From NCBI GenBank assembly GCA_965248435.1, contig OZ252100.1, forward strand, positions 1,536,001 to 1,600,000: 64,000 bases of DNA, read 5' to 3'. Position numbers and translations under genes: made by a program. Positions 45,159 through 63,213 of the stretch are shown piece by piece (position 1 is the first letter of the stretch; every line of letters begins with the position of its first letter). The notes beneath the pieces were generated by a model. It had not been told where the DNA came from and did no database searches. It worked only from the letters and a program-made list of their open reading frames with translations. This DNA is from Candidatus Latescibacterota bacterium. GTDB lineage: Bacteria; Latescibacterota; UBA2968; GCA-2709665.

Positions 45159-46589
45159 ATGTCCAGCGCGCCTTTTCAGGCCTGCATTCTCTTTCTCGTG
45201 GATGGGGCACGGCCCGACGTCCTTGACGACCTGATGCAACGCGGCGAACTGCCGAACATCTCTCGTTACATCGTGGAGCCCGGTTCATTCTGTCGGGCGA
45301 CCACCGTCTTTCCCTCGACCACCGGTCCCGCATACCTTCCTTTCCTGACCGGTACCTACCCCGGTCCGAGCAACCTCCCTGGAATCCGTTGGTTCGACAG
45401 AAAGGCGTTTTCCCGATATGGCATCTGGGGCTGGAAGAGCTGCCGCTCCTATATCGGCCCGGGGAGCTACTGCATCAACAATGACCTGACACTCCCGTTC
45501 CCGACGATCTTCGAGCGTTTCGAACGGCCCGCGAACATTTTCAGCGCCATCAATCGAGGCGTCGGGTTCGTGGGCAACTCCACGAAGGCGATCCGCAGTG
45601 CCTACTGGCTCTACGCGCACTGGACAGACCGCTGGCAACCTGTAGACAGGGCCGCCGGGCGGCTCCTCATCAGTGCCATCCGTCGGAGGTCGGACTTCGT
45701 CTTTGTCGTCTTTCCCGGCGTCGACGAATTCTCTCACCTGAGACATCCTTTCGCGGACGAAGTCCTGGAATCTTATCGTGAGCTGGATCGCGCGGTCGGG
45801 AACGCAGCAGCAGAGCTCTCTGCCCAGGGTAGGGCTGAAGAGACGCTCCTGGTGCTCGTTAGCGACCACGGACTCACCGAAACCCGAAATCATTTCGACC
45901 CGGGCGACCTGCTCGATTCCCTCGGCCTGCGAACCCTCCACTTTCCAAAGGTCTTCCGCCCCGACGCGGACGCCGCGTTCATGGTCTCCGGGAACGGAAT
46001 GGGCCACGTCTATTTTCGTGCGAAGCGGGGCTGGGAAGAACGGATGTGTTTTGAAGACATCCGTGAGCTCAAACCCGATCCGGTGACCGAGTTTCTCTGC
46101 AGAAGTGAAATCGATCTGGTCGCGAGTCGGGCTCACGACGGCGGGGTCTGGGTGGTCGGACAGAATGGGGAGGCTCGGATATTCGAAAGAGGAGGGCGCT
46201 ACACCTATGAGATCCTTTCCGGGGACCCGCTGGGCTACGGTCCCCTCTCTCCCGAGCTGGATGCCGAACAGGCTCATGCCCTGACCTTTGAGACGGACTA
46301 CCCGGACGGTCTGGTCCAACTCGCACAGATCTTTGAGGCCCCGAGGGCGGGGGACCTGATCCTCAGTGCGAAGGTGGGCTGTGACCTCAGATCGTGTGAA
46401 TATGAAAACCCGGATCACCACGCTTCGCACGGCTCTTTATACCGCGAGCACATGCACGTTCCCCTGGCCATAAACACCCCCGTCCAGAACGATCGCCTGC
46501 GCACCGTCGACCTGTTCCCTTCAATCCTCCAGCTGACGGGACGGCCCTTCCCGGGAGACATCGAAGGAAGGACGGTTGGTGCTTCTTAG
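45159..46589 (+). CDS. Alkaline phosphatase superfamily, nucleotide pyrophosphatase/phosphodiesterase
   Basis: VDGAR, FPSTTGP (Thr nucleophile), DEFSH, SDHG, SHGS. Confidence 0.88.
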   Translation: MSSAPFQACILFLVDGARPDVLDDLMQRGELPNISRYIVEPGSFCRATTVFPSTTGPAYLPFLTGTYPGPSNLPGIRWFDRKAFSRYGIWGWKSCRSYIGPGSYCINNDLTLPFPTIFERFERPANIFSAINRGVGFVGNSTKAIRSAYWLYAHWTDRWQPVDRAAGRLLISAIRRRSDFVFVVFPGVDEFSHLRHPFADEVLESYRELDRAVGNAAAELSAQGRAEETLLVLVSDHGLTETRNHFDPGDLLDSLGLRTLHFPKVFRPDADAAFMVSGNGMGHVYFRAKRGWEERMCFEDIRELKPDPVTEFLCRSEIDLVASRAHDGGVWVVGQNGEARIFERGGRYTYEILSGDPLGYGPLSPELDAEQAHALTFETDYPDGLVQLAQIFEAPRAGDLILSAKVGCDLRSCEYENPDHHASHGSLYREHMHVPLAINTPVQNDRLRTVDLFPSILQLTGRPFPGDIEGRTVGAS

Positions 46590-46610
46590 GCAGGGCCCTG
46601 CACCGGCCAA

Positions 46611-47276
46611 ATGACCGTAATGAGCATCTTCTATATCGGGGTTTCCCTCGACCTCATCGGCGTCCTCCTCATCGGCCTGGACTTGATGGGGCGCAACCGG
46701 ATCGAACGGTTTGAAGCGCAGCTCCAACGCCTCCTCCGCGACACGGCTGTAGCCCTCTTCACTCCGGCCTACGTCTTCCAGACATTTCAGGACCTTTTTT
46801 ACAAACGCCGCGTATTCTTCTGGTTTCTTGCACTCACCCCGGTCCTGCTGCTGCCCCGGTATGTCGCGTGGTTGATCACGACGCCCGTCTGGTACTATGT
46901 CCGCGGGCTCGGCATCCTCTGGTCGATCATCGGCGCATTCTGTCTGCCACTCGTCCTCTTCAGTCTTCTCCTCTGGGTCTGTTTCCACAGACATGCCGGG
47001 TTTCCGGTCTGGGTCGACCATCTGCTTGCGGTCGCCGCCTTCCCCTTCCGTCCCGGGCTTGTCCTGACCCTGCCCGCGGCCTTCATCTTCCTCCTGCTGC
47101 CCGTCCTCCTGAACTTCATCTTCATCAAAGGACTGCTCTATGTCCTCTACGCAGTCACCGTCCTACTATGGCACTTCCCCTTCCTCCACCCCGCCAGGGG
47201 CTCCCTCGCGCTGCGTCTGATGGGCATCCTCTGCCTGGGCGCAGGGGTCACGGTCCAGCTGATCACGATGTTCTAG
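46611..47276 (+). CDS. Hypothetical integral membrane protein
   Basis: 221 aa with several hydrophobic segments; 21 nt after the previous stop. Confidence 0.65.
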   Translation: MTVMSIFYIGVSLDLIGVLLIGLDLMGRNRIERFEAQLQRLLRDTAVALFTPAYVFQTFQDLFYKRRVFFWFLALTPVLLLPRYVAWLITTPVWYYVRGLGILWSIIGAFCLPLVLFSLLLWVCFHRHAGFPVWVDHLLAVAAFPFRPGLVLTLPAAFIFLLLPVLLNFIFIKGLLYVLYAVTVLLWHFPFLHPARGSLALRLMGILCLGAGVTVQLITMF

Positions 47277-47290
47277 ACATCCCGTTCCTC

Positions 47291-47350
47291 GGGGCGTCTC
47301 TAACCGACAGGGCACGAAAAAACGCCGCCAGAAATCAGATCTGACGGCGT
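47291..47350. repeat. Second copy of the REP-half plus terminator repeat
   Basis: 40/41 identity with 21634-21674 plus shared GGGGCGTCTC. Confidence 0.85.
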
Positions 47351-47420
47351 GGTATTGGACACGGCGTACCGTGTCCCTTCTTCTCTGTCTCTTTCTTCTC
47401 GATCCACTTACGCGAAATTC

Positions 47421-47479
47421 AAATCCCCCTCAATCCCCCTCCCTCGACAAGCTCGGGACATGCTTTTCAAAGGGGGAAG
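47421..47479 (+). repeat. CCCCCT...AGGGGG palindromic element carrying a 23-nt insertion (47441-47463)
   Basis: Flanks align without gaps to the empty copy at 60600-60635. Confidence 0.8.
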
Positions 47480-47654
47480 GTTGCTTCTCGTTTAACACAT
47501 TGTGGATCGTTTCCGTGGATCTCCGCGTGTTCTTCCGTGATCCAGGTTTTTCTGCGGTACCCGGTACCCGTATTTTGATTTCCCGGGGCGACGCAGGCGT
47601 CGCCCCAAACCGTAAGATCCCTGTAACCTATCTACCTATCCCGGTACCCGTTTT

Positions 47655-48980
47655 CTAAGTCAGTTTCTTCCCGAAATTTTGGGCAAACTCGATAAAATCG
47701 AACAGTCCCACCCGACCATCTCCGTCCAGGTCGAATTGGGGATCCGCATCGGGGCGTTCGAAATTCAGAACAAATTCGAGGAAGTCCTGAAAACCGACCT
47801 CTCCATCCCCGTCAAAGTCCCCCGCCAAAGCCTGGATGGGCACCTCCCGGATCACGCTTATGGAAACCTGGTCAAAAGCGCCTGAGGGATCCATCAGTTT
47901 GATCTGAATCGTCTCCGAACCCGCCCAGTCCAGATCGGCGAAAATCCTCGCCGTCGGACCCTCCAGAATCTCCACGTTCACGCTCCCGTCCGTTAGGCCC
48001 TGCCAGACCAGCGAGCCGAGGTCATCGTCCACATCCTCGCCCCCCGCGGCGAGGCTGATCGAAACAGACGGCCCCGAAAGCGAAATCGTATCCTGCAGCA
48101 CCCCGCCCACAATCTGCGGAGGGTCGTTCACCGGTTGCACCGCGAGAGGCACCTCTGCTGTCGCGCTGATGCCACTCGGGTCCGTCGCGCTGAAGGCAAT
48201 CTGAACATCCCCGTTGAAATCTGGAGACGGTGTGAACACGACCTGGGTCGAGTCCGCGCCCGGAAACGTGACATCCACGTTGGAACCCGACCCGGTCACA
48301 TCCCAGACGATGCCCGCGGGTCCCGACTCGGCGTCCGTGGCCAGATCGAGCAGGTTCAGGACAAGGACAGAATCCTCGTCCATCTGAAACGGATCAGGGA
48401 GTTGAAAAGAAGGGGGAAGATTCCTGAACTCGAGGGGAGGGACCCCCTCAAATTCGAAGGTCAACCCATCTACGTTCGGGACCGTGTAGACGCTGACCCG
48501 CGGGATTCCGGGGTCATTGTGGAGGGCGATCTGAGAGCTGCCCGATAGACCCGCGGTCACAACCAGCCGGAGCGTGAACAGGGGCCCGGACACGACGGCA
48601 CCCGATAGGTCTGCCTCTGCGTAGTGAACGATGACGAGGCTGTCGGAATGCGCCAGGAGCGTATCCACCAGGATCTCGGAAAGCAGGCCATCGGACTCAG
48701 CGGGCTGGATGCCCGGGTCCGGTGATATATCCAGGGGTTCGAACAGCCCAGGATCGAACGCGAGGAAAAGTTCCACACCGGTGAGGACCTCGCCCTCCGA
48801 ATCCACTTCAACAACCACGTCTACCGTGTCGCCCGGAGGGGCGTAAAACAGGCTGTCGCCATCGGAGGTCAGGATCTGGAGGATAAGCGAAAGGGCGGGT
48901 TGGGGCTGAAATACGAGTACAGTGAGGAAGAAGAATAGAAAAGGGATCTGTCGCATAGCGTGCGATAGGAGGTTGCGCAT
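47655..48980 (-). CDS. Secreted protein: cohesin-like, two cadherin-like Ig domains, C-terminal dockerin-like domain
   Basis: Signal-like N-terminus; MDED...ATD.E...PDFNG...VQPVNDPP; GDFDGDGEVGFQDF...DLDGDGRVGLFDFIEFAQNFG. Confidence 0.85.
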   Translation of the reverse strand: MRNLLSHAMRQIPFLFFFLTVLVFQPQPALSLILQILTSDGDSLFYAPPGDTVDVVVEVDSEGEVLTGVELFLAFDPGLFEPLDISPDPGIQPAESDGLLSEILVDTLLAHSDSLVIVHYAEADLSGAVVSGPLFTLRLVVTAGLSGSSQIALHNDPGIPRVSVYTVPNVDGLTFEFEGVPPLEFRNLPPSFQLPDPFQMDEDSVLVLNLLDLATDAESGPAGIVWDVTGSGSNVDVTFPGADSTQVVFTPSPDFNGDVQIAFSATDPSGISATAEVPLAVQPVNDPPQIVGGVLQDTISLSGPSVSISLAAGGEDVDDDLGSLVWQGLTDGSVNVEILEGPTARIFADLDWAGSETIQIKLMDPSGAFDQVSISVIREVPIQALAGDFDGDGEVGFQDFLEFVLNFERPDADPQFDLDGDGRVGLFDFIEFAQNFGKKLT

Positions 48981-49091
48981 CGCGTCACCTGTGAGTCTGA
49001 GTGTTGGGCGAACAGGAGGACCGCACCCGGGTCAAGGGGAGCAGTCTTCTTCACATCTACAAACCGAAACCGGCGAAACTCAGCCTGGAGC

Positions 49092-52000
49092 CTATTTGAG
49101 CAGCACAGCCTTCTTCACGTCCACGAATCGACCGATGGCCACACGGTACAGGTAGACTCCGGATGCGACATAACGGCCCAGTTCATCGCGACCATCCCAC
49201 GTCGCTTGATGATACCCTGGTGGGAGCACCTCCCGCACGAGCCTGCGTACCTCCTGGCCCAGCGTATTGTAAACGATCAGCTCCACCCTGGCCACTTCGG
49301 ACACGTTAAACGGAATCGTGGTCGCCGGATTGAACGGGTTGGGCAGGTTTTGCATCAACGACGGCCGATCCGGGAGATCGGACGCGTTCCTGAACGGGAG
49401 TTCATAACCCGCGACGTAAGCGACATGTCCCGTCGCGTTCAAGACCTGTACGTTTTCGAGACGGATGCGATCCTTGAACGCTCGATCGGAGATCTTGAAG
49501 GAGAGCAGATGACCATTTCCGGACAGCCCCGCCTGCCTCCCGGACAGCACCGCTGCCACCCTGAACCTCACCTCTCCCTCACCGGCCATCTCTCTGACAA
49601 GAAATAGGGGTCGGCCATCGACCACAAGGAAATCACCAGACTGCATCCCGCTACGCGTCAGACCCGCACCAGAAGGTGCGACGAGGTCCGCAGAGAACCC
49701 CACCGTGGCCTGAGCGCCCTTAATCTTCAATTCGCCAACCAGAGGCTGCGCCCAGGAGATGGCGACCCGGGTCCCCGTGACCACAGGTTTGGCCGGAACA
49801 GCCGGACCCAATCCCTGCTCTCCGAAGTTGGACTGCAGCAGGGCGAAGTCCGCAAGCGTAACGACGCCGTCCCCGTTGAAGTCAGCACCCCAGGCCACGC
49901 TCCCGACGTCGAATCCAGAGGCACCGAAGTTGGCGGCAAGGATTCCGAAATCAGCCAGATCGGCACGGTTGTCATCGTTGGCATCCCCGGCCCGAAGCTC
50001 GGTGGACACAATTGAGCTATCCGCCGACACCCAGCGAAACGAAACCGGGCTCGAAACGCCAAGCGAATCGTTCACGACGACACTGTCCCCGGATACCCTT
50101 GCCCTCAGGTAATGAAAAGTCTTCGCGAACAACCCATACGATCCCGACGCAACCTGAAGCAGCGTAAAGCCGCCATCTGGAGCAAGGATAGTCTGAACCC
50201 CATTCTCGTTCAAGTCCAGATCGTTCGGAGGGGCGTAGGCCACGGAGTCCGGCAGGGGCGTCCCAAGAGAGTCGGTCAACGTGAGATCGAACCGGATGTC
50301 CAGATCGAGCCCGTCCGTGCGCCCCTGGAAGGAGACGCTGCCGGGCACCTTGTGATTCCTCAGAATAAGCGTACTCGGTGGAGGGATGTAGGGCAGGATC
50401 AGTGCACCGTCACTTCTCGCAGTGAGCACGGTCTGGCGGACCGAGGCGGTGTCGCTCACGACCTGGATCTGTGTCAGCGTGTCCTTGAGGGCGACGAACG
50501 TGAGATTACCGATCGGGACAGGTTCATCGGCCAGCACGGGGAGGAAGCCCAACCCGAAGTTGATCTGACCTGCTACCCCGTTGTCCAGGCCGTTCTGAAG
50601 GACCTTCGCACTCGAGGCCAGCGTGGAGTCCACGGCAAACGGTTGTAGCCCTGACGTGCCGGAATCCCCGTCAAGTAACGTAAACGCAAGGCTGTCGTAA
50701 TCCATGAAGATGGAAAGGCTCTGCACGTCGTGGCCCACAGGATTCAACCGGACGGTCGTGACGATCGTGTCCTGAATGTGGTATGGACTGTTTTCCGTGT
50801 AGACGAAATCGAAGAACGGCTGGGCCCCGGAAGAGGCGCTGGCCGTGTCGGAGGACGCGGATGCGACCTCTGCGACATTCTCTGAGACAGCGTAATAGTA
50901 GAACGCCTGATTCACTGTGGCGCTGCTGTCTATGAAACTCCGGAAGACGAACGTGCTGTCTTTCGTTTGCGCGGCACTCGTATCGAACCTTACGATCTCG
51001 GAGTAGGGTCCGGATTGTGCGGATGCCCTGAAGACCCGGTAGGAAACGATGCGGCCCGTTTCCTCATCCACCCTCGGCCGCCTCCAGGTCAGATTCACGT
51101 TCCCGCCCAGATCCCCCTGCAGGTCCTCGGCCTCCATCTTCAGCGGAGGCGCCGGCAGCTTGATCAGCGTGTCCACGTTGTTGGCGAATAGGGTCAGTCC
51201 GTTCCCGTCAGGGTCCAAAACTGCTACATCCGGTTTCCCGTCGGCGTTGACGTCGGCAGACACGGAAGCGCCTGCCCCCTGCACATCGCCAAGGGAGAAC
51301 GAGGTGGGGAAGGCCCCGTTTCCGTCGTTCACCAGAACCGTCACGTTGCCGTCGCCCCGGGGGACCAGAAGGTCCGCGTATCGATCGTGGTCGATGTCTG
51401 CCGCCTCCAACGCAGCAGCCGTATCGCCCACGGCATAGCTATTCGAAAGGCTGAACGCCCCGCTCCCGTCGTTCAAGTAGAGGGACACCTGCGAATTTTC
51501 CATCGCGACCGCAACGTCCCTGTCTCCGTCTCGATCGAAGTCTTCTGGCGCCAGGTGGACCGGGGTCGAGCCCGGAGTGACCGGGGTCTGTTGAGAGAAC
51601 GTCGCATTGCCCTGGTTGATGAGGAGCCTGAACGTCCCTTCCATACGGCTCAACACGAGCAGGTCGATCAGCCCGTTCCCGGTGAAATCTCCGGCCTCCA
51701 GCGCGTCGTGAGACGAACCGACCTGAAGCAGATCGGGGGCCTCGAAACTCCCCATGCCGTCGTTCAAGAAGATGTGCAGTCTACCCGCTGCTTCATCCGA
51801 CACGACGATATCCACATCCTGGTCGCTGTCGAAGTCGGCGAGCGCGAGGTGGGCCGCAGGCCCCCCCACGAAAAGGTCCACCGGAAGCGAGAATACCCCG
51901 GTACTGTCGTTGAATAGGATGGAGATCGTTTCTTTGATCCGATTCGCAGAGACGAGATCCAGGTCGCCGTCCAGATCCAGGTCCGTAACCGCTACGTCCA

Positions 52001-53195
52001 CAGGTCCGTCCCCGGCACGATAATCCACCCGGTCGAACAGTGCGCCCGAGGACCGCGTCAACAGGACCGAAAGCGTGTTGCTTGCGTGGTTTGCGGCGAT
52101 CAGGTCCGCCAGGCCGTCTCCATCCAGATCTGCTGAGGAAAGCCCGCGGGGGTCCGGCCCGGTGATGAGAAAGTTCACCGAATCCAGCCCGGTCTGTTTC
52201 AGGCGCTGCACGGCCGCGGTGGTCAGCCCCCGCATCCCCGCGTAGACGACATTCGGGCTGTCGGGATGGACGGCAACGGCATCGACTTCGACGGTGGGTA
52301 TATTCCTCGTCAGGTCAAACCACGTGATCCCGTTGTCGCTCGACTTGAAGACCTCACCCATGTCCGTGCCCGCATACAGGATCGAAGGGCTGCCCGGCGC
52401 GAGCCCCAGGCTGGTCATCCCGAGAGACGCCAGCCCGTTGTTGGCCGCAGACCAGGTGTTCCCACGATCTGTGCTCCGGAAGACACCGGCGTCGGTCGTC
52501 GCCGCATAGACCAGATCCGGGTTCAGCGGATTAACGACGACCTCTATGATCCGCAGACTGCCCAAACCGGTGTTGATCTGAAGCCAGGTTGTGCCCCCGT
52601 CATACGTCCTGAAGACGCCCACCGTGTCGGTCCCGACGTAAACGGTGTCGGGACCCAGGGGATTGATCGCCAGGGCCGACACGTTCACCGTATCCAGCCC
52701 CGCTTTCGCCCAGGTTGTCCCTCCGTCAAGGCTCACAACAACGCTGTCCAGAGAACCTGCGAAGACCCGGCTGGTGTCATCCGGATCGACCACGATGGCG
52801 TCCACGCGCACCCCACCCAACCCCGTCGCCACCCAGGTCGCGCCTCCATCCACACTCTTGAACACACCCCTGCTCAGCGTGCCCGCGTAGTTGACCTGTG
52901 CGCTCCTGGCGTTCACGGCGATGCTCAGTACCGTATCGACGAACGTCTGAGCCCAGGTGCTCCCCCGGTTCAGGCTGCGGAACACACCGGAATTCGTCCC
53001 GGCGAAATCGAACGCTCCGGCCAGCAGCGTATCGGGGGCCAGCGGGAGGACCTCGATGTCCAGTACACCCGTGAATCCCGTCGGGCCGTTGGAGAACCAG
53101 ACATTGGTGGTATCCGTCTGCGCCGCCCCTTTCCCGGGCCACAGCGCACCGACGAGCGCCAACGCGATCAGGAGCGACCTTGTCCGCTCAGTCAT
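49092..53195 (-). CDS. Secreted protein: BNR/Asp-box propeller, FG-GAP/VCBS propeller, Fn3-like, cohesin-like, dockerin-like, C-terminal FlgD-Ig/T9SS-type domain
   Basis: Repeated S.DGG.TW; repeated DLDGDG..DL; GDANDDNRADLADF/ADFNGDGVVTLADF; QNLPNPFNPAT...SGVYLY...KAVLLK. Confidence 0.9.
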   Translation of the reverse strand: MTERTRSLLIALALVGALWPGKGAAQTDTTNVWFSNGPTGFTGVLDIEVLPLAPDTLLAGAFDFAGTNSGVFRSLNRGSTWAQTFVDTVLSIAVNARSAQVNYAGTLSRGVFKSVDGGATWVATGLGGVRVDAIVVDPDDTSRVFAGSLDSVVVSLDGGTTWAKAGLDTVNVSALAINPLGPDTVYVGTDTVGVFRTYDGGTTWLQINTGLGSLRIIEVVVNPLNPDLVYAATTDAGVFRSTDRGNTWSAANNGLASLGMTSLGLAPGSPSILYAGTDMGEVFKSSDNGITWFDLTRNIPTVEVDAVAVHPDSPNVVYAGMRGLTTAAVQRLKQTGLDSVNFLITGPDPRGLSSADLDGDGLADLIAANHASNTLSVLLTRSSGALFDRVDYRAGDGPVDVAVTDLDLDGDLDLVSANRIKETISILFNDSTGVFSLPVDLFVGGPAAHLALADFDSDQDVDIVVSDEAAGRLHIFLNDGMGSFEAPDLLQVGSSHDALEAGDFTGNGLIDLLVLSRMEGTFRLLINQGNATFSQQTPVTPGSTPVHLAPEDFDRDGDRDVAVAMENSQVSLYLNDGSGAFSLSNSYAVGDTAAALEAADIDHDRYADLLVPRGDGNVTVLVNDGNGAFPTSFSLGDVQGAGASVSADVNADGKPDVAVLDPDGNGLTLFANNVDTLIKLPAPPLKMEAEDLQGDLGGNVNLTWRRPRVDEETGRIVSYRVFRASAQSGPYSEIVRFDTSAAQTKDSTFVFRSFIDSSATVNQAFYYYAVSENVAEVASASSDTASASSGAQPFFDFVYTENSPYHIQDTIVTTVRLNPVGHDVQSLSIFMDYDSLAFTLLDGDSGTSGLQPFAVDSTLASSAKVLQNGLDNGVAGQINFGLGFLPVLADEPVPIGNLTFVALKDTLTQIQVVSDTASVRQTVLTARSDGALILPYIPPPSTLILRNHKVPGSVSFQGRTDGLDLDIRFDLTLTDSLGTPLPDSVAYAPPNDLDLNENGVQTILAPDGGFTLLQVASGSYGLFAKTFHYLRARVSGDSVVVNDSLGVSSPVSFRWVSADSSIVSTELRAGDANDDNRADLADFGILAANFGASGFDVGSVAWGADFNGDGVVTLADFALLQSNFGEQGLGPAVPAKPVVTGTRVAISWAQPLVGELKIKGAQATVGFSADLVAPSGAGLTRSGMQSGDFLVVDGRPLFLVREMAGEGEVRFRVAAVLSGRQAGLSGNGHLLSFKISDRAFKDRIRLENVQVLNATGHVAYVAGYELPFRNASDLPDRPSLMQNLPNPFNPATTIPFNVSEVARVELIVYNTLGQEVRRLVREVLPPGYHQATWDGRDELGRYVASGVYLYRVAIGRFVDVKKAVLLK

Positions 53196-55492
53196 CGGTC
53201 CCTCTGATCTGCCATCTTGGTGGCGGTGTAATCGGACCCGAACAGCTTCGCGAACGCGAGGAAATCAAGGAAGCCGATCTCCCCGTCTTTGTCCAGATCC
53301 GATTTCTCATCGTAGAGCGTTTCTCCCGCCCGGCTCTCGAATGCAGACGTGAATCCCACAAAGTCCAGAAAGTCCACTTTACGATCCCCGTTCAGATCCC
53401 CGGGATCATCGGCGAGTTCTGCCGTCATAAAACTTTGAATGTCGGAATTACCTAGATTGCCGGCAGCGTCTGCAAAGGCGACGCGGTAGAAATAGAGGGT
53501 CTCTGGCGCCAGACCAATCTGTGTGATCGAATGTATTTTCTTAGATCCGGAGAGCGTCGCCTCCCCGAACGCAGCGGAGTCGGATAGGTCAGCCAAAAGT
53601 CCAACTCGCACGCGGCTGTCCGTGTCTTCGCTCGTCGTTCAGCCGATGGAAGCCGACGTTGCGGTGATGGCCGAAACCGAGGGGTTGGTCACGATTTCAG
53701 GAGAGGTCACATCGGGCGTGGTCGTGAATCGACGGGTCGGGCCGCTTGTCCTCGCCCCGGCCAAATCCTGGGAGACGATCTGCCAGTAGAAGGTCTCATC
53801 GTGTGGAAGACCTGGCAGCGTATGCTGACCCACAGTGAGGCCCTGAGTGTTTACCTGAAGCGTGGTCGGGCTGGCTCCAAACCGGAACTCGAAGGTGAGC
53901 GTATCGTTCAGATCCGGATCGCTCCCGATCCACGTAAACGTCAAAGGTGTAGAGACCAGCACGCTGTCGGCAGGTCCCGTATAGACCGGTGCAGCGGGGG
54001 GGTCGTTTACCTGCCTCACCTCCAGAACCACGACGGCGGAGTCGGAGGCGCCGCCAGGATCGGTCACCGTCGCATCGATCCGATAGACGCCCGAACCGCC
54101 GGCTGGCGGTGTGAGGATCACCACTGCGCCCGCGTTCGAGATCGGCGGAGTCACTGTCACCTGGACGAGACTGTCCGGGTCCTGGAATGCCCAGATCAAT
54201 GCATCGACCGGTGACTCCAGGTCTGTGGCCTGCGGCCTCAACGCAACCGCCGCAGACAGGTCTTCGTCTGTCTTCAGAATCGGAAACGGTTTGATTTCGG
54301 GCGGCGTGTTTCCCAGACCAATGGCGTTCCCTCTGGCCAGGGTCAACGTGGCCGACGCGGAAGTGATGTATTGGCTGTTGTGCAGTGGAACCTCGTTTAG
54401 CGCGCGCAGCAGCGTGTTCGTGGACAAAGGCTGAAGAATTGCAAAATCGAGTTGTGCCAGGGGCCCTTCGGCGGTTACGGAACCCTGAAACAGGACCGAA
54501 AAGTGGACGATGCCGCTCCCCGGATTCGTCCCATCCAGGATCCGGTTGACCACGATGATCGCGTTATCGGTAAAGCCCGTGCGAACCATCGGGGAGTCCG
54601 GCACGCTGGGCGCGAACACAAGATCATCATACCCGAAATAGACCTCCACACCATCAATCGTATCTCCGTTCGGATTCAGGTCCAACCTCACTGAAACCGT
54701 GTCCCCGGCGTTGGGAAAGGCCAACGAATCCAGCAGAACCAGCGAAAGGCCTGCGGCCCCGATCTGGTTCGGCGTCTCCAGTGCCTCGAGCACGACGGAG
54801 ACGAGCCCGCTTTCGAAGTCGTTACTCTCCACTTTCAATGTATCGGTCCTGGCGTCTGTCCCTTCAGGGGTATAAATCAGATCCAATTCTAGGGTCTCGG
54901 ACGGGCCCAGGCTCAAGCTGTCGCTGCTGACTTGAAACCGTGTGTCGCTCAAGGTTAGACTCGAAACACGAAGCGTGTCGCTCCCCACGTTCGCAATCTC
55001 TACCTTCTGGGTATCCGCCGCCCCGACCTGAGAACTCACGAAGGTCAGCTTCAGAGGGATCACCTCGATGTCCGGTCCCAATCCGGTCCCCTGGATCGAA
55101 ACCAGAGGTCTGGGCAAGGATGGATCTTCAAGCTCCAGATTCGTTTCGAACAGCAGTGCGTCGGTCAAAATCCCGGTCGCGATCGGCGCGAACGAAACGA
55201 GTAGGTCAACGCTGTCTCCCGGGGCCAGAGTAAATGACGTGTCTGCTACGCTGAAAACTGATTCCGACCCCGCCGCCATTTCGACGGCCGAGATCACAAG
55301 GCTTTCTGTCCCGGGATTAGAGATGTTCAGTTCCGCCTCTGCGGAGTCCCCTTGAGCCACCCCCTGAAAGTCCAGGCGCTCCGGCTGAAAGAGAATGCCC
55401 GGATCGCCCTGGGCCTTCAGCGGCCCCAGGACCAGCAGGGGCAGCATCAACCAGATGGCAGTGCCGCTTCCATTCCTCGATCCTGTTCCCAT
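53192..55492 (-). pseudogene. Secreted protein (Ig-like x2, cohesin-like, cadherin-like, Fn3-like, dockerin-like) interrupted by an in-frame TGA at 53639-53641
   Basis: Probable start MGTGSRNG after guaA; SASIG*TTSEDTDSRV continues in the same frame into ORF 53192..53611, which carries the dockerin. Confidence 0.8.
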
Positions 55493-55506
55493 GTAGCTCC
55501 AACCAC

Positions 55507-57306
55507 CTACTCCCATTCGATAGTACCGGGTGGTTTGTGAGTGACATCGTAAAACACCGCATCGACGCCGCCCGTATTCACGATTTCTTCGGCGAGCCCG
55601 GCCAGCAGGTCCAACGGAAGCTCTGAAAAACGGGCCGTCATGAAATCCGGAGTCTGTACGGGCCTGAGCACGATCGTCTCGCGCGCTCCGCCAGATGTGA
55701 GGGGTATCAGCACCGTCGGCATCTGCGAGACCTCTCTCATCTGCCCCCACGCCACCAGCGCCTTCATGGAAATCGCATCCACCTCCCGCAGGAGGTCCAG
55801 CCTCGCACGTGTGAGAAAGGCGCGCTTCGGCCTCAGATTTGGAGGCCCTCCGGGCGAGAGCAGGTAGACGAGTCGGTTGATCGACCTGACTTGATTTGTG
55901 ATTCGCGTGGAAACCGCTTCGAGCGCCTTCCAGTCCGCTTCTCCCCAAACGGCAGCCGGGTAAGCGTAAGTCCGAAAGTCTCCCTGCACACCCACGCTCT
56001 GGATCGGCAGCATCTTCAGGTCCAACCCGGCCTCCGCCGCCATGCCCCTGGCGGTCTCTTCTGCTTCGGAGAGATCCTCCTGTGGAGGCTCGCCGGTAGA
56101 ACAGAGGCACCGCACCGCCAGTCCTGGACCGGGAAACGGGTGACGCCAGACGAGCGGCTCCGGGAGACCGAGCTGAAGGCCCAATTCTCTGACCTCATCT
56201 TTGTAGAGCTGGGCAAGGGGCTCGATCACCCGTCCCGTTGCGATCAGTTCATCAATCAAATCGATTCTGTTATGGTGCGTCTTGATCCGTGCTGCGTGGT
56301 CTGTCCCACCCGATTCGATCGTATCGGGGTAAAGTGTCCCCTGTCCGAGGATCCACTGTTCCGGGTCCAGATCCATTCGCGTGAGGACCCGATCTTTGAC
56401 TTCAAGAAACGTTCGACCGATGGCCAGTCGTTTTTCCTCGGGGTCCACAAGCCCTTCCACGCTCAACAGAAAGTCGTCGACGGCGTCCTCCACGACGAGA
56501 TTGTCGAACCCTTCCTCGGTCAGGAAGTCCTTAACGGCCGCCGTCTCTTCTTTTCGCATGAATCCATTGTCGATGTGCAACCCAAGAACGCGGTCTGCCC
56601 CTAGGGCCCGGTTGAAAAGAAGGAACGAGACCGTTGAATCCACGCCGCCCGAGACGAGCAGGAAGACGTTACGGTCGCCCACCTTTTCCCGAATTTCCCG
56701 AACCGCGGTCTCCGCGTAGCTGGCCATGGTCCAGGTGCGAGGGGCGTCGCAGATCTTCAGAAAATTGTTCAGGATCTCCATGCCCTGCGGCGTATGCGTC
56801 ACCTCTGGATGAAACTGCAGGCCATAGATGTGTCGATCCGGATCGCCGACAGCCGCAGTCGGACAAGCGCTGGTCTCGCCCAGCACCCGAAACCCTTCAG
56901 GGAGGCGATCCACCACGTCTCCGTGACTCATCCAGACCACTTGAGATTCACCCAGGCCTTCCAGCAGCCCGGTACCGGATCGAATCCGGAGTTCCGCGGA
57001 GCCGTATTCCCGAATCTCACCCGGAGAAACCTCGCCGCCCAGCGTCTGACAGATCAGCTGGTGGCCGTAGCACAACCCCAGGATGGGCAGTCCCGAAACC
57101 AGGTTATCCGGATTGTAGTCAGGCTGGTCTGAATCGTAGACGCTGGCGGGACCGCCTGAGAAGATGAGCCCACGGGCCCCCTGAAGCTCGGAAGGATCGA
57201 CGGTAGGATGAAAGATTTCGGCGTAGACCTGGAGCCTTCTAATCCGGTTTGCGATCAGGTGGGCGTACTGCCCCCCGAAATCGAGGACGGCTATGCCGCT
57301 TCGCAT
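55507..57306 (-). CDS. guaA: GMP synthase (glutamine-hydrolysing), long form
   Basis: LDFGGQY, GLCYGHQ, QFHPEV, SGGVDS, IKTHHN, HPFPGPGL, KPPGTIEWE. Confidence 0.98.
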   Translation of the reverse strand: MRSGIAVLDFGGQYAHLIANRIRRLQVYAEIFHPTVDPSELQGARGLIFSGGPASVYDSDQPDYNPDNLVSGLPILGLCYGHQLICQTLGGEVSPGEIREYGSAELRIRSGTGLLEGLGESQVVWMSHGDVVDRLPEGFRVLGETSACPTAAVGDPDRHIYGLQFHPEVTHTPQGMEILNNFLKICDAPRTWTMASYAETAVREIREKVGDRNVFLLVSGGVDSTVSFLLFNRALGADRVLGLHIDNGFMRKEETAAVKDFLTEEGFDNLVVEDAVDDFLLSVEGLVDPEEKRLAIGRTFLEVKDRVLTRMDLDPEQWILGQGTLYPDTIESGGTDHAARIKTHHNRIDLIDELIATGRVIEPLAQLYKDEVRELGLQLGLPEPLVWRHPFPGPGLAVRCLCSTGEPPQEDLSEAEETARGMAAEAGLDLKMLPIQSVGVQGDFRTYAYPAAVWGEADWKALEAVSTRITNQVRSINRLVYLLSPGGPPNLRPKRAFLTRARLDLLREVDAISMKALVAWGQMREVSQMPTVLIPLTSGGARETIVLRPVQTPDFMTARFSELPLDLLAGLAEEIVNTGGVDAVFYDVTHKPPGTIEWE

Positions 57307-57410
57307 GCATGGACCTATAAAAAGAATCCAGGAGCCAGGATCCAGAACACAGCCAAACCTGTCTTCCGCGACCTGACCCCTGAATTACCACAGGCTAACC
57401 TGGTTTCCCC

Positions 57411-58757
57411 TTAGAATCCCTTGATATATCCCTTCAGAGACACGCCATACCGTGTAAAGCCGCCCATATCGGTAATCACATCGGCGCCGAATGTGTAGCG
57501 CGCATTAAACGGAAACCTCACGTTCAGATCCAGGTAGTTCTTCTCGACCTCCCGGTCCCACCTCCAGTCCAGACTTGCGATCACCGATCGCAGCGTCCCG
57601 TCCGGATTGGCGTTCATTCCGGCCGGGTTCAGCGTTTTCATAAAATAGGTCAATCCTGCGTTAATCTCGTCCAAATTCCCGAACCGCATCAACCCGGCCC
57701 GAATCGTAAACCGCTTGAACAGCGGAATCGATAACCCCACGCCAAACCCGAAGCCCCGCTTCGCGCTCTTTTCCAGCGACGACTCTGCGTCCATACGGAG
57801 GCTGTCCGTGATCGGAGCCCTGAACAACGAGTCAGCTTTGGTAACCTGCGTCGAATCGAGAGAACCGATGAACAGGCTGTCCGCGACCAGGTCGCCGCGG
57901 GCGCGAATCAACACCCTCGCCCCGGTGGTCAATGAACTGGAACCGCGGCCGCCTCGCCCGACAATCAGGGTGATCGCCGGCTCTCCAATCTCTCCATCGG
58001 GCGTCTTGCCATCTCCTAAGTAAGGCACCAGCGGACCGGGATAGTAGCGGGCACCGACGGCCAACAGCGAATTTCCACCCCGCCACACGTCAAGGAGCGC
58101 CGAAAGCCGGCGCGATCTGGGCATCACGAGTGAAAGCTGCATCTCCTGCTTGTCGTTAATGCCGGCCAGCTTCTGGTTGATGCCGGTCTGATCTGCCTGA
58201 CCCCTGAGCCCTGCGGAAATCAACTGATAGATCGAATCGGGCGTCGCAGTCCTTACACGGCTGCCGAGCCCGAATCGAAAGTCCGTGACCCACGACCCAA
58301 CGGCCCCGTCCGGGTTTTTCTCTGAGTGAACGGGCACCGTCATCATCGGCACACCCGCCACCGCATCCATCTGTCGCTCTACCCTCTCTTTGAGTTCCAT
58401 AGGCAGTGGACGGACGCGGATCAGACCCTCTCTCGCCTCGCTGTCCATCGCGCTAAGGTCTGTCTTTCGATCCAGGTCGACCACTTCGGCGGTCGAGAGC
58501 CTTGGAAACACCTGAACCACACGCACGGTGCCGAGTGGCACATCCCCACCAAGATCTTCACCGGTCACCGGGTGAATGATGGCCTCGTGGCGGAGGACCT
58601 GGAGGAAATCATCGGGATGCAGGTTGTCCTGCTCGCCCAGATCCACGAATACAAGCCGGCCCTGCACCTGAACCACATACCCCAGGTGTGTTTGAGAGGA
58701 AACCGCATCCGTGAACAAGAACGTGAGGAAGCAGGTCACCCCTAAAAAGCGCATCAT
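57411..58757 (-). CDS. Exported protein: FlgT-C-like N-domain plus predicted outer-membrane beta-barrel
   Basis: Signal peptide, IIHPVTGEDLG motif, amphipathic strands, terminal Phe; start set at MMRFLG just after the upstream stop. Confidence 0.7.
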   Translation of the reverse strand: MMRFLGVTCFLTFLFTDAVSSQTHLGYVVQVQGRLVFVDLGEQDNLHPDDFLQVLRHEAIIHPVTGEDLGGDVPLGTVRVVQVFPRLSTAEVVDLDRKTDLSAMDSEAREGLIRVRPLPMELKERVERQMDAVAGVPMMTVPVHSEKNPDGAVGSWVTDFRFGLGSRVRTATPDSIYQLISAGLRGQADQTGINQKLAGINDKQEMQLSLVMPRSRRLSALLDVWRGGNSLLAVGARYYPGPLVPYLGDGKTPDGEIGEPAITLIVGRGGRGSSSLTTGARVLIRARGDLVADSLFIGSLDSTQVTKADSLFRAPITDSLRMDAESSLEKSAKRGFGFGVGLSIPLFKRFTIRAGLMRFGNLDEINAGLTYFMKTLNPAGMNANPDGTLRSVIASLDWRWDREVEKNYLDLNVRFPFNARYTFGADVITDMGGFTRYGVSLKGYIKGF

Positions 58758-58764
58758 CGATCGG

Positions 58765-59811
58765 TTACTTTTCTGCATCGGCTGCCTCGACCTCTTCGGG
58801 TTCAGGAATCTCTTCAGGCATCATCTCATCATCCACTTCGGCGAATTCTTCCTCCGCTTCATCTTCTTCGTCCGCCTCTGCAGGCGCTTTTCGTTTCATC
58901 ATCTTCAACACGAGGAGGACCGCAGCGCCGAGAGGACCCAGCAGCACGACCCACCAGTAAGCGATGTACCAGGGCGTCTCCTCCTCAGGAGGGGGCTCAT
59001 CTTCGAACAGACTCGGCACGGGATCCTCTCCAACCGAAGCTGTCCCGCCCTGGATACCAGATGCCAGCTGCTCTTCGATCAATCGATTCTCCTCGAAGGA
59101 GAGACGAAAACTCCGGTCTCCAACCATCAGGTAGATCTCTTCGTCCTCGGTCCGCCGAAGGACACCCAGTTCGTGCATGTCGGCCGGCATCATCGTCTCC
59201 ACCTCGGCCGTATCCCGTTCGATGAGCTCGGCCTGGTTGGTCTGGAACTCCTGCATACGGCCTTCCAGGCTCACCATCCGCTCTCGCATGTTGGTAACCG
59301 CGTTGATCACCGTCTTGAGTCGCCGTTCGGAACTCCCGATCCGCCTCAAGGTCCGCCGAAGGTCCGAAATCGCCTTCTGGTTCGACTTGATTTCGTCGGC
59401 CAGCCCGCGTGCCAGAACCTTGACCTCTGCACGGGCTTCCGCGATCTCATCCTTTATCTTCTCTTCAGGCGTCGGAATAAGCTCGAGCCCGACCACGACA
59501 TCGCCTACTTCCACTGGCGCATACCTGACGATGTAGCGCCCAGAGGCGAATGTCGGTCCCGTCTTCGTGATTTCGATCTCCGCGATCTTGACACTCGGCG
59601 CCCCCAGATTTTCTCCGGTGACGGGGTGGATGATCGGTTCGGCCTTCCGATAGACCTCTCCGACCATGCCCTCCTGGATCCCCCTGTCCGCACCCGCTCC
59701 GACGTAGACCGTCTTTCCTTCGACCTTGATCACGTTGAGCAGGTCGGCATTGACGATGCCGGGACTCAGCAGGATTCCCAGAGAGAGGGAGAGATAGAAG
59801 AAATGCTTCAT
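58765..59811 (-). CDS. Exported protein: FlgT-C-like domain, coiled coil, C-terminal TM helix, acidic tail
   Basis: Signal peptide (VNA), IIHPVTGENLG, heptad region, WYIAYWWVVLLGPLGAAVLLVL followed by KMMKRK. Confidence 0.75.
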   Translation of the reverse strand: MKHFFYLSLSLGILLSPGIVNADLLNVIKVEGKTVYVGAGADRGIQEGMVGEVYRKAEPIIHPVTGENLGAPSVKIAEIEITKTGPTFASGRYIVRYAPVEVGDVVVGLELIPTPEEKIKDEIAEARAEVKVLARGLADEIKSNQKAISDLRRTLRRIGSSERRLKTVINAVTNMRERMVSLEGRMQEFQTNQAELIERDTAEVETMMPADMHELGVLRRTEDEEIYLMVGDRSFRLSFEENRLIEEQLASGIQGGTASVGEDPVPSLFEDEPPPEEETPWYIAYWWVVLLGPLGAAVLLVLKMMKRKAPAEADEEDEAEEEFAEVDDEMMPEEIPEPEEVEAADAEK

Positions 59812-60203
59812 CTTTTTCCTCGAATGACGGATTTCTCTAAAGATCTCAGGGTGGGGGAGATTGGTTCTACCTGCAAATGCCAGAGGGAGTGGGAATTTCC
59901 GTAGTGCCTGCCCTCAAGAAGCAAAAGAGAGGCCAGATCTACCCCGCCTCCCCAGCGCAACGGCTAAGCCGGTGTCAATACATAACGTAAGTCATTGTCT
60001 TCAAACAGAAATGAAGACCCAACTTATGGACGAGCGCGAACCTCTGATACAAAATGTAGTGGGGGCCCTCCAAAACGGCCGGCAGATTCAAACAACCCGG
60101 AATCGGACGCATCGCTGCCCCCTGGGGCCGCGCGAAGGACCGGATCGGGGGCCGGATCGGAATAATTTTCCCCTGATGAGCCCGACCTCCCCGATCGAGC
60201 AAC

Positions 60204-60410
60204 CTATCCGGGTGGCGTTTTTACGATCTCCCGAAGAAAATCCTCGGCCGAGAACTCGTTGCAACCCGTTGCCTCTATAAGAAGATCCAGGATCTCCCTC
60301 CGTTCCCGACGGTTGTAGATCAGGTCTTCGAAGACATCCTTGAATTTTCTGCGACCCAGAGTCGCTTCGATTTCCTTTGGCGTCATCCAGGGATTTGCTT
60401 CTTCAGACAT
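60204..60410 (-). CDS. Small hypothetical protein (68 aa)
   Basis: GGGAGGAGG SD; amphipathic helical sequence. Confidence 0.7.
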   Translation of the reverse strand: MSEEANPWMTPKEIEATLGRRKFKDVFEDLIYNRRERREILDLLIEATGCNEFSAEDFLREIVKTPPG

Positions 60411-60772
60411 CTCTCCCTCCTCCCAAAGAACTCGCTTAACCCGTTCAAAACCTTGAGTTAAAATTAACGGAATCCCAATTTGATGTCAACGCGTCAGCTC
60501 ACGAACTCACGAATATAATCACACCCCGGGGCCCAAACAAGCCGGGCACCCCCGGATTCGAAGTATGCGTCGGTCATAATACGATCGTGATGAACTCTGA
60601 AATCCCCCTCAGTCCACCTTTTCCAAAGGGGGAAGAATGCGTCTCGTGATCGCCTCCCCCCTTTGTAAAGGTTCATCGTCAAATGTTGGGGGTTAAAGTA
60701 ATGTGCTCTAATTTTGAAACTCGCCGATTCGTGCACAGTCTTGGAACCCGCGAACTGTATCACTCAAGTCCG

Positions 60773-61456
60773 TCAGGGCCACGGTGTGCGACTCCCTTGC
60801 AACCAGGTCCTTTCACCTCCCACGCGGTTAGGCCCTCTGGGCCAGTCCCATAGTGGGCGTCAGGCGAGGCAGGAGTCCCGCCCTGATTGCCGACACCGTC
60901 TTTTCCACTGAGGGTGAGGTGCCGCGGCCGAAGCCTCCCCGGCGTTTGAGGGGCGCCTTTCTTTTGCCTACTTTTCTTGTGGCGAGACAAGAAAAGTAGG
61001 TCGCCGGAGGCATGATGTTGTGAAGTTCGCGATATTACCCACCCCGACCCAGGAGGGGACTGGCGTCTCTCAAACTCGCAAAAGAGATCGTTCGAAGCCA
61101 TCAGGGCCGCGGTGTGCGACTCCCATGCAACCTCGTTCTTTCACCTCCCACGCGGTTAGGCCCTCTGGGCCGGTCCCACAGTGGACGTCAGGCGGTGCAG
61201 GAGTCCCGCCCTGATTGTCGCCATCGTCCTTTCCACTGAGGGTGAGGTGCCGCGGCCGAAGCCCCCGCGGCGTTTGAGCGGCGCCCTTCTTTTGTCCTCG
61301 GGCGCGGCACAACGCGCCCCTACAGCGAAATCTTGGAGTGTAGGGGCACAGCCGCGCTGTGCCCCAGGGTGGCGGTTGCGGTAGGCCTTTTCTTGGGCGA
61401 GCAAGAAAAGCATGCCCTGAGCCTGCCGAAGGGTAGGCTGCCGGAGGCATAGGTTG
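60773..61456. repeat. Tandem duplication of a structured element (194-nt cores at 60773-60966 and 61101-61294, plus terminal hairpins)
   Basis: Cores align without gaps at a 328-nt offset; both are followed by a CTTTTCTTG...CAAGAAAAG hairpin, interrupted by insertions in copy 2. Confidence 0.92.
61300..61365. repeat. Divergent pair of GTAG REP-like palindromes
   Basis: GGGCGCG..CGCGCCCCTACA and TGTAGGGGCACAGC.GCTGTGCCCC separated by 14 nt. Confidence 0.75.
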
Positions 61457-61552
61457 TAGGCGCAGAAAAACTGTATGCAATCACCGCGAATCATTTCGTC
61501 GCCAGGGGGAAGACAGGCTTCAGGCGGCGAATCGTCACCCTGATAATCGCCT

Positions 61553-61576
61553 TCGCCAGCAGGAGCTGGCTCCTAC
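61553..61576 (-). repeat. GTAG REP-like palindrome
   Basis: GTAGGAGCCAGCTCCTGCTGGCGA on the minus strand. Confidence 0.7.
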
Positions 61577-61864
61577 CACATTTATTTTCTGATTCCGAAA
61601 ACACGCCCTTTTGCCTTTCATTCCGCAATCCCAAATCCGCAATCCGCAATTGTACGGCCGCAGGAGGCACGGGGTTGTTGGATGGGGTAAGTGCTTTAGG
61701 AATTCACCTCGCGGTCCAATGCATGGCATCATCCGAATTCGGAGAAGAGCCACGAAGGAGATGCATCTACCCATACTCCGGCGTCCGGAAGTGATTGAAA
61801 AACATCATAAAGATGTGTACACTGACCTCGGATGAGCCCCACCACCCGCACCGATCGGACCGAA

Positions 61865-62278
61865 ATGAACGCCCACGACCTTCCAACGATTAACGCGATC
61901 CTCAACAGCATAAGCGGCATCCTGCTCGCCCTGGGGTTCATCCAGATCAAGAGGCAAAGGATCCAGGCCCACAAACGGCTGATGTTCTCCGCGCTCACCG
62001 CGTCTGTCCTGTTTCTCACCAGCTATCTGATCTACCACGCCCGGGTCGGTTCCGTCCCCTACCCGCACTTTGACTGGACCCGTCCCCTCTACTTCGCCGT
62101 TCTGATCCCCCACGTGATCCTGGCAGCGGCGATGGTCCCGTTCATCCTTCTCATGGTCAGGCACGCATTACGTGAACGATTCGACGCCCATCGGAGGCTC
62201 GCACGCTGGGTCTGGCCGGTCTGGATGTTCGTTTCGGTCAGCGGCGTCGTGGTTTACACGATGCTCTACAGACTCTAA
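61865..62278 (+). CDS. DUF420 family membrane protein
   Basis: LPTINAILN, HKRLM, FLTSYLIYH, LIPHVILA, HRRLARW..P.W..VS.SGV.VY; alternative start at 61832. Confidence 0.88.
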   Translation: MNAHDLPTINAILNSISGILLALGFIQIKRQRIQAHKRLMFSALTASVLFLTSYLIYHARVGSVPYPHFDWTRPLYFAVLIPHVILAAAMVPFILLMVRHALRERFDAHRRLARWVWPVWMFVSVSGVVVYTMLYRL

Positions 62279-62313
62279 ATGGCGTCGTGCAACCTATCGC
62301 AAGGAGATCCCTC

Positions 62314-63213
62314 ATGACCATTCTCGTTTCTGGGTCCACCGGCCTGGTCGGCTCCGCGATCGTCACCCGCCTGGAAGAGGAGGGCCACCGGGTCGTGCGG
62401 CTCGTTCGAAGGAAGCCCGAATCGGACCGCTCCGAGGTCGGCTGGAACCCGGAGTCGGGCGCGATCGATACCTCCGGTCTGGAGGGCACCGACGCCGTCA
62501 TCCACCTGGCCGGCGACAACATTGCCGAAGGCAGATGGAACGACGAAAAAAAGGCGAGGATACGGGACAGCCGCGTGAATGGCACCCGACTCCTCGCAGA
62601 ATCCCTGGCCGACCTGGACGCGCCACCGCGCACCCTGATTGCGGCCTCCGCGATCGGCTACTACGGCGACCGCGGAGATGAGGTTCTTACCGAAGAGAGC
62701 ACACCGGCGTCGGACTTCCTGAGTGAGACGTGTCAGGCCTGGGAAGCAGCCGTCCAGCCCGCCGTTCAAAAGGGCGTCCGGACGGTCAACCTGCGGATCG
62801 GGGTCGTCCTCAGCCTCGACGGCGGCGCCCTTGCCAAAATGCACTTTCCGTTCCGAATGGGCCTGGGCGGGGTGATGGGCAGCGGAGACCAGTACGTGAG
62901 CTGGGTCTCGATTCACGACCTGCCCGGAATCGTCCTGCACCTCCTCTCGAATGAGGATCTGAGCGGCCCTGTCAACGCCGTGGCGCCAAACCCGGTGACC
63001 AATCGCGAGTTTACGAAGACCCTGGGGCGGGTCCTGGTACGTCCGACCCTCTTCCCCATGCCGGCCTTCGCCGCGCGTCTCGCCTTCGGCGAAATGGCCG
63101 ACGCCCTTCTCCTTTCCAGCACACGGGTGCATCCCGAGCGTCTTGCGGCCTCAGGCTACGCGTTTCGGCACGCCGACATCGAGTCCGCCCTGAGGGAAAT
63201 CCTGAGTAAGTAG
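62314..63213 (+). CDS. TIGR01777/YfcH-like NAD-dependent epimerase family protein
   Basis: GSTGLVG, HLAG, SRV.GT, SAIGYYG, WE, GSGDQ..SW, NAVAPNPVTN; AAGGAG SD. Confidence 0.93.
   Translation: MTILVSGSTGLVGSAIVTRLEEEGHRVVRLVRRKPESDRSEVGWNPESGAIDTSGLEGTDAVIHLAGDNIAEGRWNDEKKARIRDSRVNGTRLLAESLADLDAPPRTLIAASAIGYYGDRGDEVLTEESTPASDFLSETCQAWEAAVQPAVQKGVRTVNLRIGVVLSLDGGALAKMHFPFRMGLGGVMGSGDQYVSWVSIHDLPGIVLHLLSNEDLSGPVNAVAPNPVTNREFTKTLGRVLVRPTLFPMPAFAARLAFGEMADALLLSSTRVHPERLAASGYAFRHADIESALREILSK

Follow-up and report, generated by a model that had tools for sequence, protein, structure and literature searches.

A 23-nt tagged-hairpin micro-element with a sharply defined junction rule, nested in the palindromic repeats of a bacterial genome

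We analyzed a window of 64 000 nt (C1:1536001–1600000 of a 5.67-Mb genome with 56.6% G+C) and found that a 23-nt sequence occurring twice in it is a real, discrete micro-element of the REP/SDR type, which follows a sharply defined junction rule and is nested in other repeats. On balance, we favor the interpretation that this sequence is a very small non-coding module, a tagged hairpin, that has been inserted repeatedly and in a strand-specific manner into pre-existing palindromic repeats, its copies having later spread as passengers of these repeats and by conversion.

The two copies lie at window positions 47441–47463 on the forward strand (CCCTCGACAAGCTCGGGACATGC) and 61410–61432 on the reverse strand (CCTTCGGCAGGCTCAGGGCATGC). 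As the initial annotation had claimed, both are present, with empty-site twins in the same window; a direct comparison bears out their identity at 18 of 23 positions, TTTTC follows both on the 3΄ side and no target duplication is visible. The first copy consists of a 4-bp stem, an 11-nt conserved middle and a CATG tag, and the second, a T/A stem variant with a GGGCATGC end, sits between the outer and inner stems of a host hairpin (host C). The insert boundaries are uncertain by one C, both frames being equivalent at 47441; when filled copies are set against the empty paralogues of four host families, the best frame lies 1 nt leftward (47440–47462, TCCC...CATG in the first copy), which gives YCCY...CATG before a C. 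Read 5΄ to 3΄, the consensus is YCCYTCGRCARGCTCRGGRCATG, in which the first four letters pair with RGGR, and which includes the conserved middle and the CATG tag. The 23-mer alone folds weakly (z = –0.3 and –1.4 for the window copies), and the stem is supported by the covariation of its pairs rather than by folding energy. The compensatory stem change that had been noted between the two copies is real, and stem pairs covary across 148 aligned copies from different phyla. Variants at C1:826312 and 3622109 have Watson–Crick pairs at the two mismatched positions (CCCGCG...CGCGGG), resulting in a perfect 6-bp stem; read on the opposite strand, these mismatches turn into tandem G-A pairs. Both window units are located outside long open reading frames (ORFs), except for overlapping frames that run across the repeats. 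A search of window positions 46500–62500 against Rfam returned no match at E ≤ 1, and readings of the unit as an integron attC site, an Xer/dif site, a terminator or a small ribozyme were considered informally and dropped, their defining words being absent.

Genome-wide, the motif count is far above chance. The strict degenerate 20-mer of the initial annotation, which had proposed a search of the whole assembly, matched 26 times in 5.67 Mb, the full 23-mer pattern 23 times and a structural regular expression 37 times (26 CATG-tagged and 11 CAGG-tagged units), compared with zero matches for the reversed control of each. The unit is 23–24 nt long, and its placement is strictly constrained: the base directly 3΄ of the CATG-tagged units is C in all 26 cases, followed by T in 25 and by C in one, and at least six of the next eight bases are pyrimidines in 25 of the 26. 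This pyrimidine run forms a hairpin's 5΄ arm in hosts B, C, D and F. The alignment of flanks from filled and empty pairs, which had also been suggested, yielded a fixed length, fixed boundaries, strand-specific placement, a T/C-rich flank and many further empty sites, and the proposed location inside palindromic repeats was confirmed in the host families. The same junction was observed in hosts A, B, C, D and F, each of which also has empty copies. At least six contexts (A forward, A mirrored, B, C, the first hairpin of D, and F) thus agree in their boundaries and in the flank rule. Empty copies outnumber filled copies in every host. Neither of the MITE hallmarks, terminal inverted repeats and target-site duplication, was found at any of the 26 junction pairs, and the copy number, 26 CATG-tagged units, is modest.

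The first window copy is inserted in host A, a ~130-nt inverted-repeat element on the forward strand. The left part of this filled site (47421–47440, AAATCCCCC...) forms the end of the element and supplies the C-run arm of its terminal hairpin, whereas the right part (47464–47479) supplies the T-rich loop side and the G-run arm, its C/TTTTC start abutting the unit. An empty copy at 60600–60635, likewise on the forward strand, had been described as equal to the filled site minus the insert; the host parts actually differ at 3 of 36 positions. We identified 92 host A ends with a regular expression, of which 56 were empty, seven contained the 23-mer, nine contained longer inserts and 20 were classified as ‘other’. 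The nine longer inserts (31–33 or 68–69 nt) have both termini in common with the 23-mer. The ‘other’ ends include three with a reverse-oriented 23-mer at the mirrored site of the palindrome, and because the host is palindromic, these represent the same target on the other strand. MITE-like ends belong to host A and not to the unit. Several kinds of element target the small palindrome of host A; for example, an ISL3-like insertion sequence of ~1.4 kb with a 427-aa frame (C1:1407001–1408441 and ~10 similar places) is situated in the hairpin loop.

The second window copy is inserted in host C, a dispersed repeat of ~290 nt. Two adjoining copies of this repeat (60735–61025 and 61075–61465) had been taken for a tandem repeat, and Tandem Repeats Finder detected no array between 60500 and 61700. 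The hairpin of the first copy is empty (60966–61001) and has an uninterrupted 14-bp stem (DNA folding energy –12.9 kcal/mol, z = –6.1), with CAAGAAAA followed directly by GTAGG at ~60995. The inner hairpin of the second copy (61388–61409, TTTTCTTG...CAAGAAAA) has the unit on the reverse strand at the foot of its pyrimidine arm. Throughout the genome, host C is represented by 92 BLAST pieces and 60 palindromic hairpin loci, and the 58 loci that could be oriented comprise 49 empty and nine filled copies; host-C-type units number 11 in total, in addition to one 56-nt form at C1:792896. The repeat, which might be a MITE or a structured RNA, has no Rfam match, and 25 of its ~60 copies are crowded into 110 kb (C1:4.93–5.04 Mb). 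The second window copy contains another extra segment of ~93 nt on the forward strand (61295–61387), located at the mirrored foot of the hairpin and absent from the first copy; it starts with TCCTCGG, resembling the unit, and is present in 17 of the 58 host C copies, where it requires 16 changes on the host tree described below, a scatter like that of the 23-mer.

Among the other hosts, host B was found in 22 copies (16 empty, five with the unit and one with a 62-nt form), host F has three copies with a 24-nt CAGG-tagged unit and at least eight empty copies, and the first hairpin of host D is empty in 13 copies and filled in one (C1:1611930). The second hairpin of host D has a GAA loop in 12 copies (GCCGAGC-GAA-GCGAGGC), and the GCGAAGC core within it corresponds to a DNA mini-hairpin of very high stability. 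In eight further copies (e.g. at 3780566 and 3783276), this GAA is replaced by 26 nt that contain the core of the unit and another tail, so that the hairpin gains 23 nt net. Subtypes of the unit differ between hosts: T/A...GGGCATG is restricted to host C, and C/G...GGACATG occurs in hosts A, B and D. Among the host C units, moreover, an A/G subtype at position 10 of the unit goes together with a variant of the adjacent hairpin loop.

We also looked for presence/absence polymorphism among strains and reads, as had been recommended, and observed none at orthologous sites. Read contigs of runs X23, X1, X2 and X19, which break at repeats, showed no 23-nt indel at 47441 or 61410 among the indels listed for window positions 46500–62500, and in a related strain (run X23, 45% of words), an 858-nt contig corresponding to 46747–47604 with two differences and no gap has the unit at 47441, i.e. 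the filled allele too. Among 40 relatives, many of which may be draft genomes with unassembled repeats, the 23-mer pattern occurred as a single copy in one and was absent from 39, and host A occurred once each in two; the history of the unit is not traceable with so few copies in relatives of which many are perhaps drafts. The initial annotation had described a minimal mobile unit that targets hairpin repeats. The discrete unit, the hairpin hosts and the empty sites of that description stand, whereas mobility itself is deduced from paralogues with and without the unit; neither gain nor loss was seen at an orthologous site.

The unit is not confined to this genome. A scan for its 19-mer core, using one genome per species, returned at least 120 loci, a number that is uninformative because ~140 chance matches are expected in 596 Gb according to our own arithmetic; flanks, counts per genome and covariation were therefore taken as the evidence for a cross-phylum family. 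We counted 86 copies of the 17-mer core in a Dehalococcoidia genome (G041), 98 in a Chloroflexota genome (G042), 11 in an NC10 genome (G043), 28 in a second Dehalococcoidia genome (G044) and 32 in a Sphingopyxis genome (G045), with zero matches for the reversed control in each. The hairpin core accordingly recurs in at least three phyla by control-checked counts, and is also found in records named for many more phyla. Among the listed core loci, 134 instances were examined, of which 47 continue with GAACG and 21 with AGGC; many of them form inverted pairs, which occur in Proteobacteria and at other loci. Arrays of the core are present in other genomes, and partial tandem duplications and nested forms occur. 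At G044 C2:614879–615159, for example, nine core copies follow one another at an exact spacing of 33 nt, a tandem array built on the module. With respect to neighboring ORFs, 56 of the 134 instances fall inside crude ORFs and 78 are intergenic, with no clear orientation bias (same/opposite strand, 31/40 for the upstream ORF and 27/39 for the downstream ORF). An Rfam search with 15 cross-phylum loci matched only SRP RNA.

For covariation, we used 148 of 162 distinct 29-nt segments from different phyla; as the search pattern fixes the core columns, information comes solely from pair 3/15 and the outer pairs. Pair 3/15 is U-A in 131 segments, C-G in eight and G-U in eight, and the next pair outward of the core is C-G in 83, U-A in 35 and another combination in 27. 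The covariation score was 0.157, compared with 0.097 in shuffled alignments (0 of 500 reached 0.157), and slid controls scored lower. The same tendency was seen within G041, for which 40 of the 86 core copies were read with their flanks: 25 have GAACG-like tails and a covarying stem (GC/GC in 12, GG/CC in five and GT/AC in three). A further 14 are CAGG- or CGGG-tagged, and in these the next base is C in 14 of 14 and the next two are CT in 13, so that the junction rule recurs in a distant phylum. Reading the flanks of the G041 tagged units by eye, we found them ahead of pyrimidine-rich hairpin arms (L150, L151, L165, L169 and L177), in the loop of another small hairpin (L162, L172, L181 and L187) or ahead of another core copy or a related small hairpin (L149, L155 and L185). 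A locus on an Acidobacteriaceae contig (L113) has the architecture of filled host C, with an outer stem, the unit and a T-rich inner hairpin. The unit belongs to a cross-phylum family of hairpin modules that share the conserved middle and a covarying stem and differ in their 3΄ tags (CATG here, CAGG or GAACG elsewhere).

Two further observations concern the distribution of the core. On C1 of G041, its copies are asymmetric between strands, with 26 forward and six reverse in the first 1.95 Mb and 23 forward and 31 reverse beyond that point, which may follow the direction of replication or transcription. Predicted viral contigs (L188–L307) contain the core at no fewer than 120 loci; among the 132 instances listed there, 23 have GAAC tails and 17 have AGGC tails, and some form inverted pairs (e.g. 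L220). Such contigs might carry the core from one lineage to another, or they might be host DNA that was misassigned.

How the filled and empty copies arose admits several explanations. It is very unlikely, in our view, that the 23 nt are an ancestral part of the hosts and that empty copies are precise deletions. Palindromes are indeed prone to deletion, and the filled form is not rare in host C, with its 11 units; however, hosts that are unrelated in sequence have the identical unit, the majority of copies in each of them is empty, and the unit breaks one arm of palindromes that are perfect when empty, with no counterpart in the opposite arm. Moreover, a 24-nt unit breaks a heptamer array on a Chloroflexaceae contig (L027), and a unit on a Dehalococcoidia chromosome breaks the third of four ~58-nt tandem units (L169). 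Because the unit interrupts perfect palindromes here and arrays in other phyla, the polarity is one of gain and not of loss. Such gains need not imply dedicated mobility: each host family might have acquired the module in a single illegitimate event, for instance when a stalled hairpin provoked a template switch, and later copies would then be due solely to host amplification and ectopic gene conversion. We regard this as a possibility worth keeping in view, though not as the probable course. The bodies of 58 host C copies were placed on a quick maximum-likelihood tree (243 columns, with the insert's own columns left out), on which the nine filled copies require eight changes and well-supported branches force at least five gains or losses; this excludes one insertion followed by host amplification. 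When the labels were shuffled, the mean was 8.6 changes and 165 of 500 shuffles were as low as the observed eight, on a tree that is weakly resolved, with 28 of 54 inner branches open. Since, in addition, the subtype at position 10 tracks the neighboring loop variant, short-tract conversion can explain much of the scatter, and the host-specific subtypes are more easily explained by passive spread or conversion than by numerous new insertions. An origin without dedicated mobility is likewise in line with the filled allele of the related strain, with core-rich genomes that can do without Y1 transposases, and with the duplicated and nested forms (the 31–69-nt variants here and the arrays elsewhere). 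Nevertheless, a fixed unit of 23–24 nt is not what one would expect of template switches occurring by chance. The equal boundaries and flank rule in six or more contexts of one genome also speak against such an origin, as does the recurrence of the placement rule in Dehalococcoidia and on the Acidobacteriaceae contig.

The initial annotation had instead proposed that a non-autonomous unit is moved in trans by an HUH enzyme of the RAYT or IS200/IS605 TnpA type, encoded elsewhere in the genome. Strand-specific insertion beside a short flank, the lack of target duplication and hairpin substrates would all suit a Y1 enzyme of this kind, and the genome does contain five matches to Y1_Tnp (PF01797), two of them intact, all outside the window, as the annotation had held; in addition, one unit is located 277 nt from a degenerate Y1 fragment (C1:1386543). 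Yet the two intact 138-aa genes (C1:2292408–2293095 and 3762289–3762847) are each flanked by a hairpin of their own, CAGCGCGGGAAT-nn-ATTCCCGCGCTG, which has 12 + 12 nt, occurs in 24 copies in the genome and differs from the unit, and together with this hairpin they look like a separate REP/RAYT-like system. The suggested survey of copies for adjacent RAYT or TnpA genes gave no motif copy within 1.5 kb of either intact gene. Furthermore, the unit has a single weak hairpin rather than two subterminal ones, and core counts in the five other genomes do not track Y1_Tnp matches (matches/core copies: 0/86 in G041, 4 weak/98 in G042, 16/11 in G043, 0/28 in G044 and 2/32 in G045). Because the core counts do not follow Y1_Tnp and the Y1 genes have their own repeat, a Y1 HUH driver is not supported, and we consider it unlikely.

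Thus, our preferred interpretation is that of repeated, strand-specific insertion into pre-existing palindromes followed by passive spread. The module would be inserted directly 5΄ of the C with which a pyrimidine-rich 5΄ hairpin arm begins, leaving no target duplication, and the anatomy of the junctions suggests that insertion acts on folded single-stranded DNA. Catalysis might be provided in trans by a putative enzyme, probably one other than a Y1 HUH transposase. The founding insertions would have been few, and most of the present copies would have spread together with the host repeats that contain them and through short-tract conversion between host copies. More tentatively, there may be a cross-phylum class of 23–24-nt tagged hairpins that parasitize the hairpins of other repeats in a strand-specific manner, before a C and a pyrimidine arm, without a Y1 HUH transposase. 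If so, an undescribed mobility mechanism would have to be considered, based either on a host enzyme that is widely conserved or on a templated process acting on single strands, and the predicted viral contigs might serve to carry such elements from phylum to phylum.

Elements as small as this one have room neither for machinery of their own nor for two recognition ends, which has made their copying a puzzle ever since the description of the small dispersed repeats (SDRs) of cyanobacteria. The present case supplies an exact unit, an exact junction rule and natural empty targets in the same genome, and the core and the junction rule recur in distant phyla, including a Dehalococcoidia genome that lacks Y1 transposases. 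The unit also accounts for one source of the spurious short ORFs and mosaic nested repeats in genome annotation.

Elements of the IS200/IS605 type insert 3΄ of a fixed tetra- or pentanucleotide, in one orientation and without target duplication, by means of folded single strands. Both these elements and their small derivatives depend on TnpA and on a pair of subterminal hairpins, and their length is several times that of the 23-nt unit. The unit resembles them in being placed beside a short specific flank, in one orientation and without target duplication, but its flank is a pyrimidine run starting with CT or CC rather than one fixed word, it has a single weak hairpin, and TnpA is missing from the core-rich genomes G041 and G044.

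The SDRs of Elhai's set are reportedly 21–27 nt long, have a common hairpin fold and fall into eight families (SDR1–8), and we know of no enzyme that moves them. Like an SDR, the unit has 20-odd nt (23–24), is dispersed, multi-copy and non-coding, and is inserted precisely into a specific short target that exists in filled and empty versions. In passages of articles that cite their description (PMC4390886, PMC5861425, PMC2884548 and PMC3116915), SDRs (Elhai et al. 2008) target HIP1, and one such passage (PMC5861425) reports them as confined to Nostocaceae. Compared by description rather than by sequence, the unit differs in that it is inserted at the foot of a pyrimidine-rich hairpin arm and not in HIP1, and in that its core, which has multiple copies in Chloroflexota, NC10 and Sphingopyxis genomes as well as in this one, is not bound to Nostocaceae.

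According to the accessible portion of Di Nocera et al. 2013 (PMC3733652), REPs are tagged stem-loops of 20–40 nt, found as singletons or inverted dimers, with an unpaired tag at one end, GTAG or CGTC (TGTC/CCTC), according to the superfamily. Those of the CGTC type are described there as having 8–9-bp stems beginning with A-T pairs, 4–5-nt loops and a CCA tail. The same portion states that some REP families are regularly inserted in small palindromes of which many empty copies exist, and that GTAG-23 of T. roseum sits within CCGSSCC(n3,4)GGSSCGG, with ‘hundreds’ of unlinked targets (PMC3733652). Our unit is likewise a repeated, extragenic stem-loop of 20–40 nt, but its 26–37 copies are few for a REP family, and it differs from the GTAG and CGTC types given there in its CATG or CAGG tag, its 4–5-bp Watson–Crick stem (YCCY/RGGR) and its conserved 11-nt middle. 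REPINs and RAYTs, as outlined in the accessible parts of Bertels & Rainey 2011 (PMC3116915) and Nunvar et al. 2010 (PMC2817692), involve short extragenic hairpin repeats that are thought to be mobilized in trans, the RAYT gene being flanked by its own REPs. Inverted pairs of the core recall this arrangement, whereas the Y1 genes here are flanked by another repeat and core-rich genomes can be without Y1_Tnp. A literature search with the DNA words of the motif and with peptide strings returned nothing relevant to the motif, and the portion of the RepRanger paper available to us (PMC12306157) contains nothing on it. The nearest described systems are the SDRs of Nostocaceae and the REPs that are inserted in palindromes.
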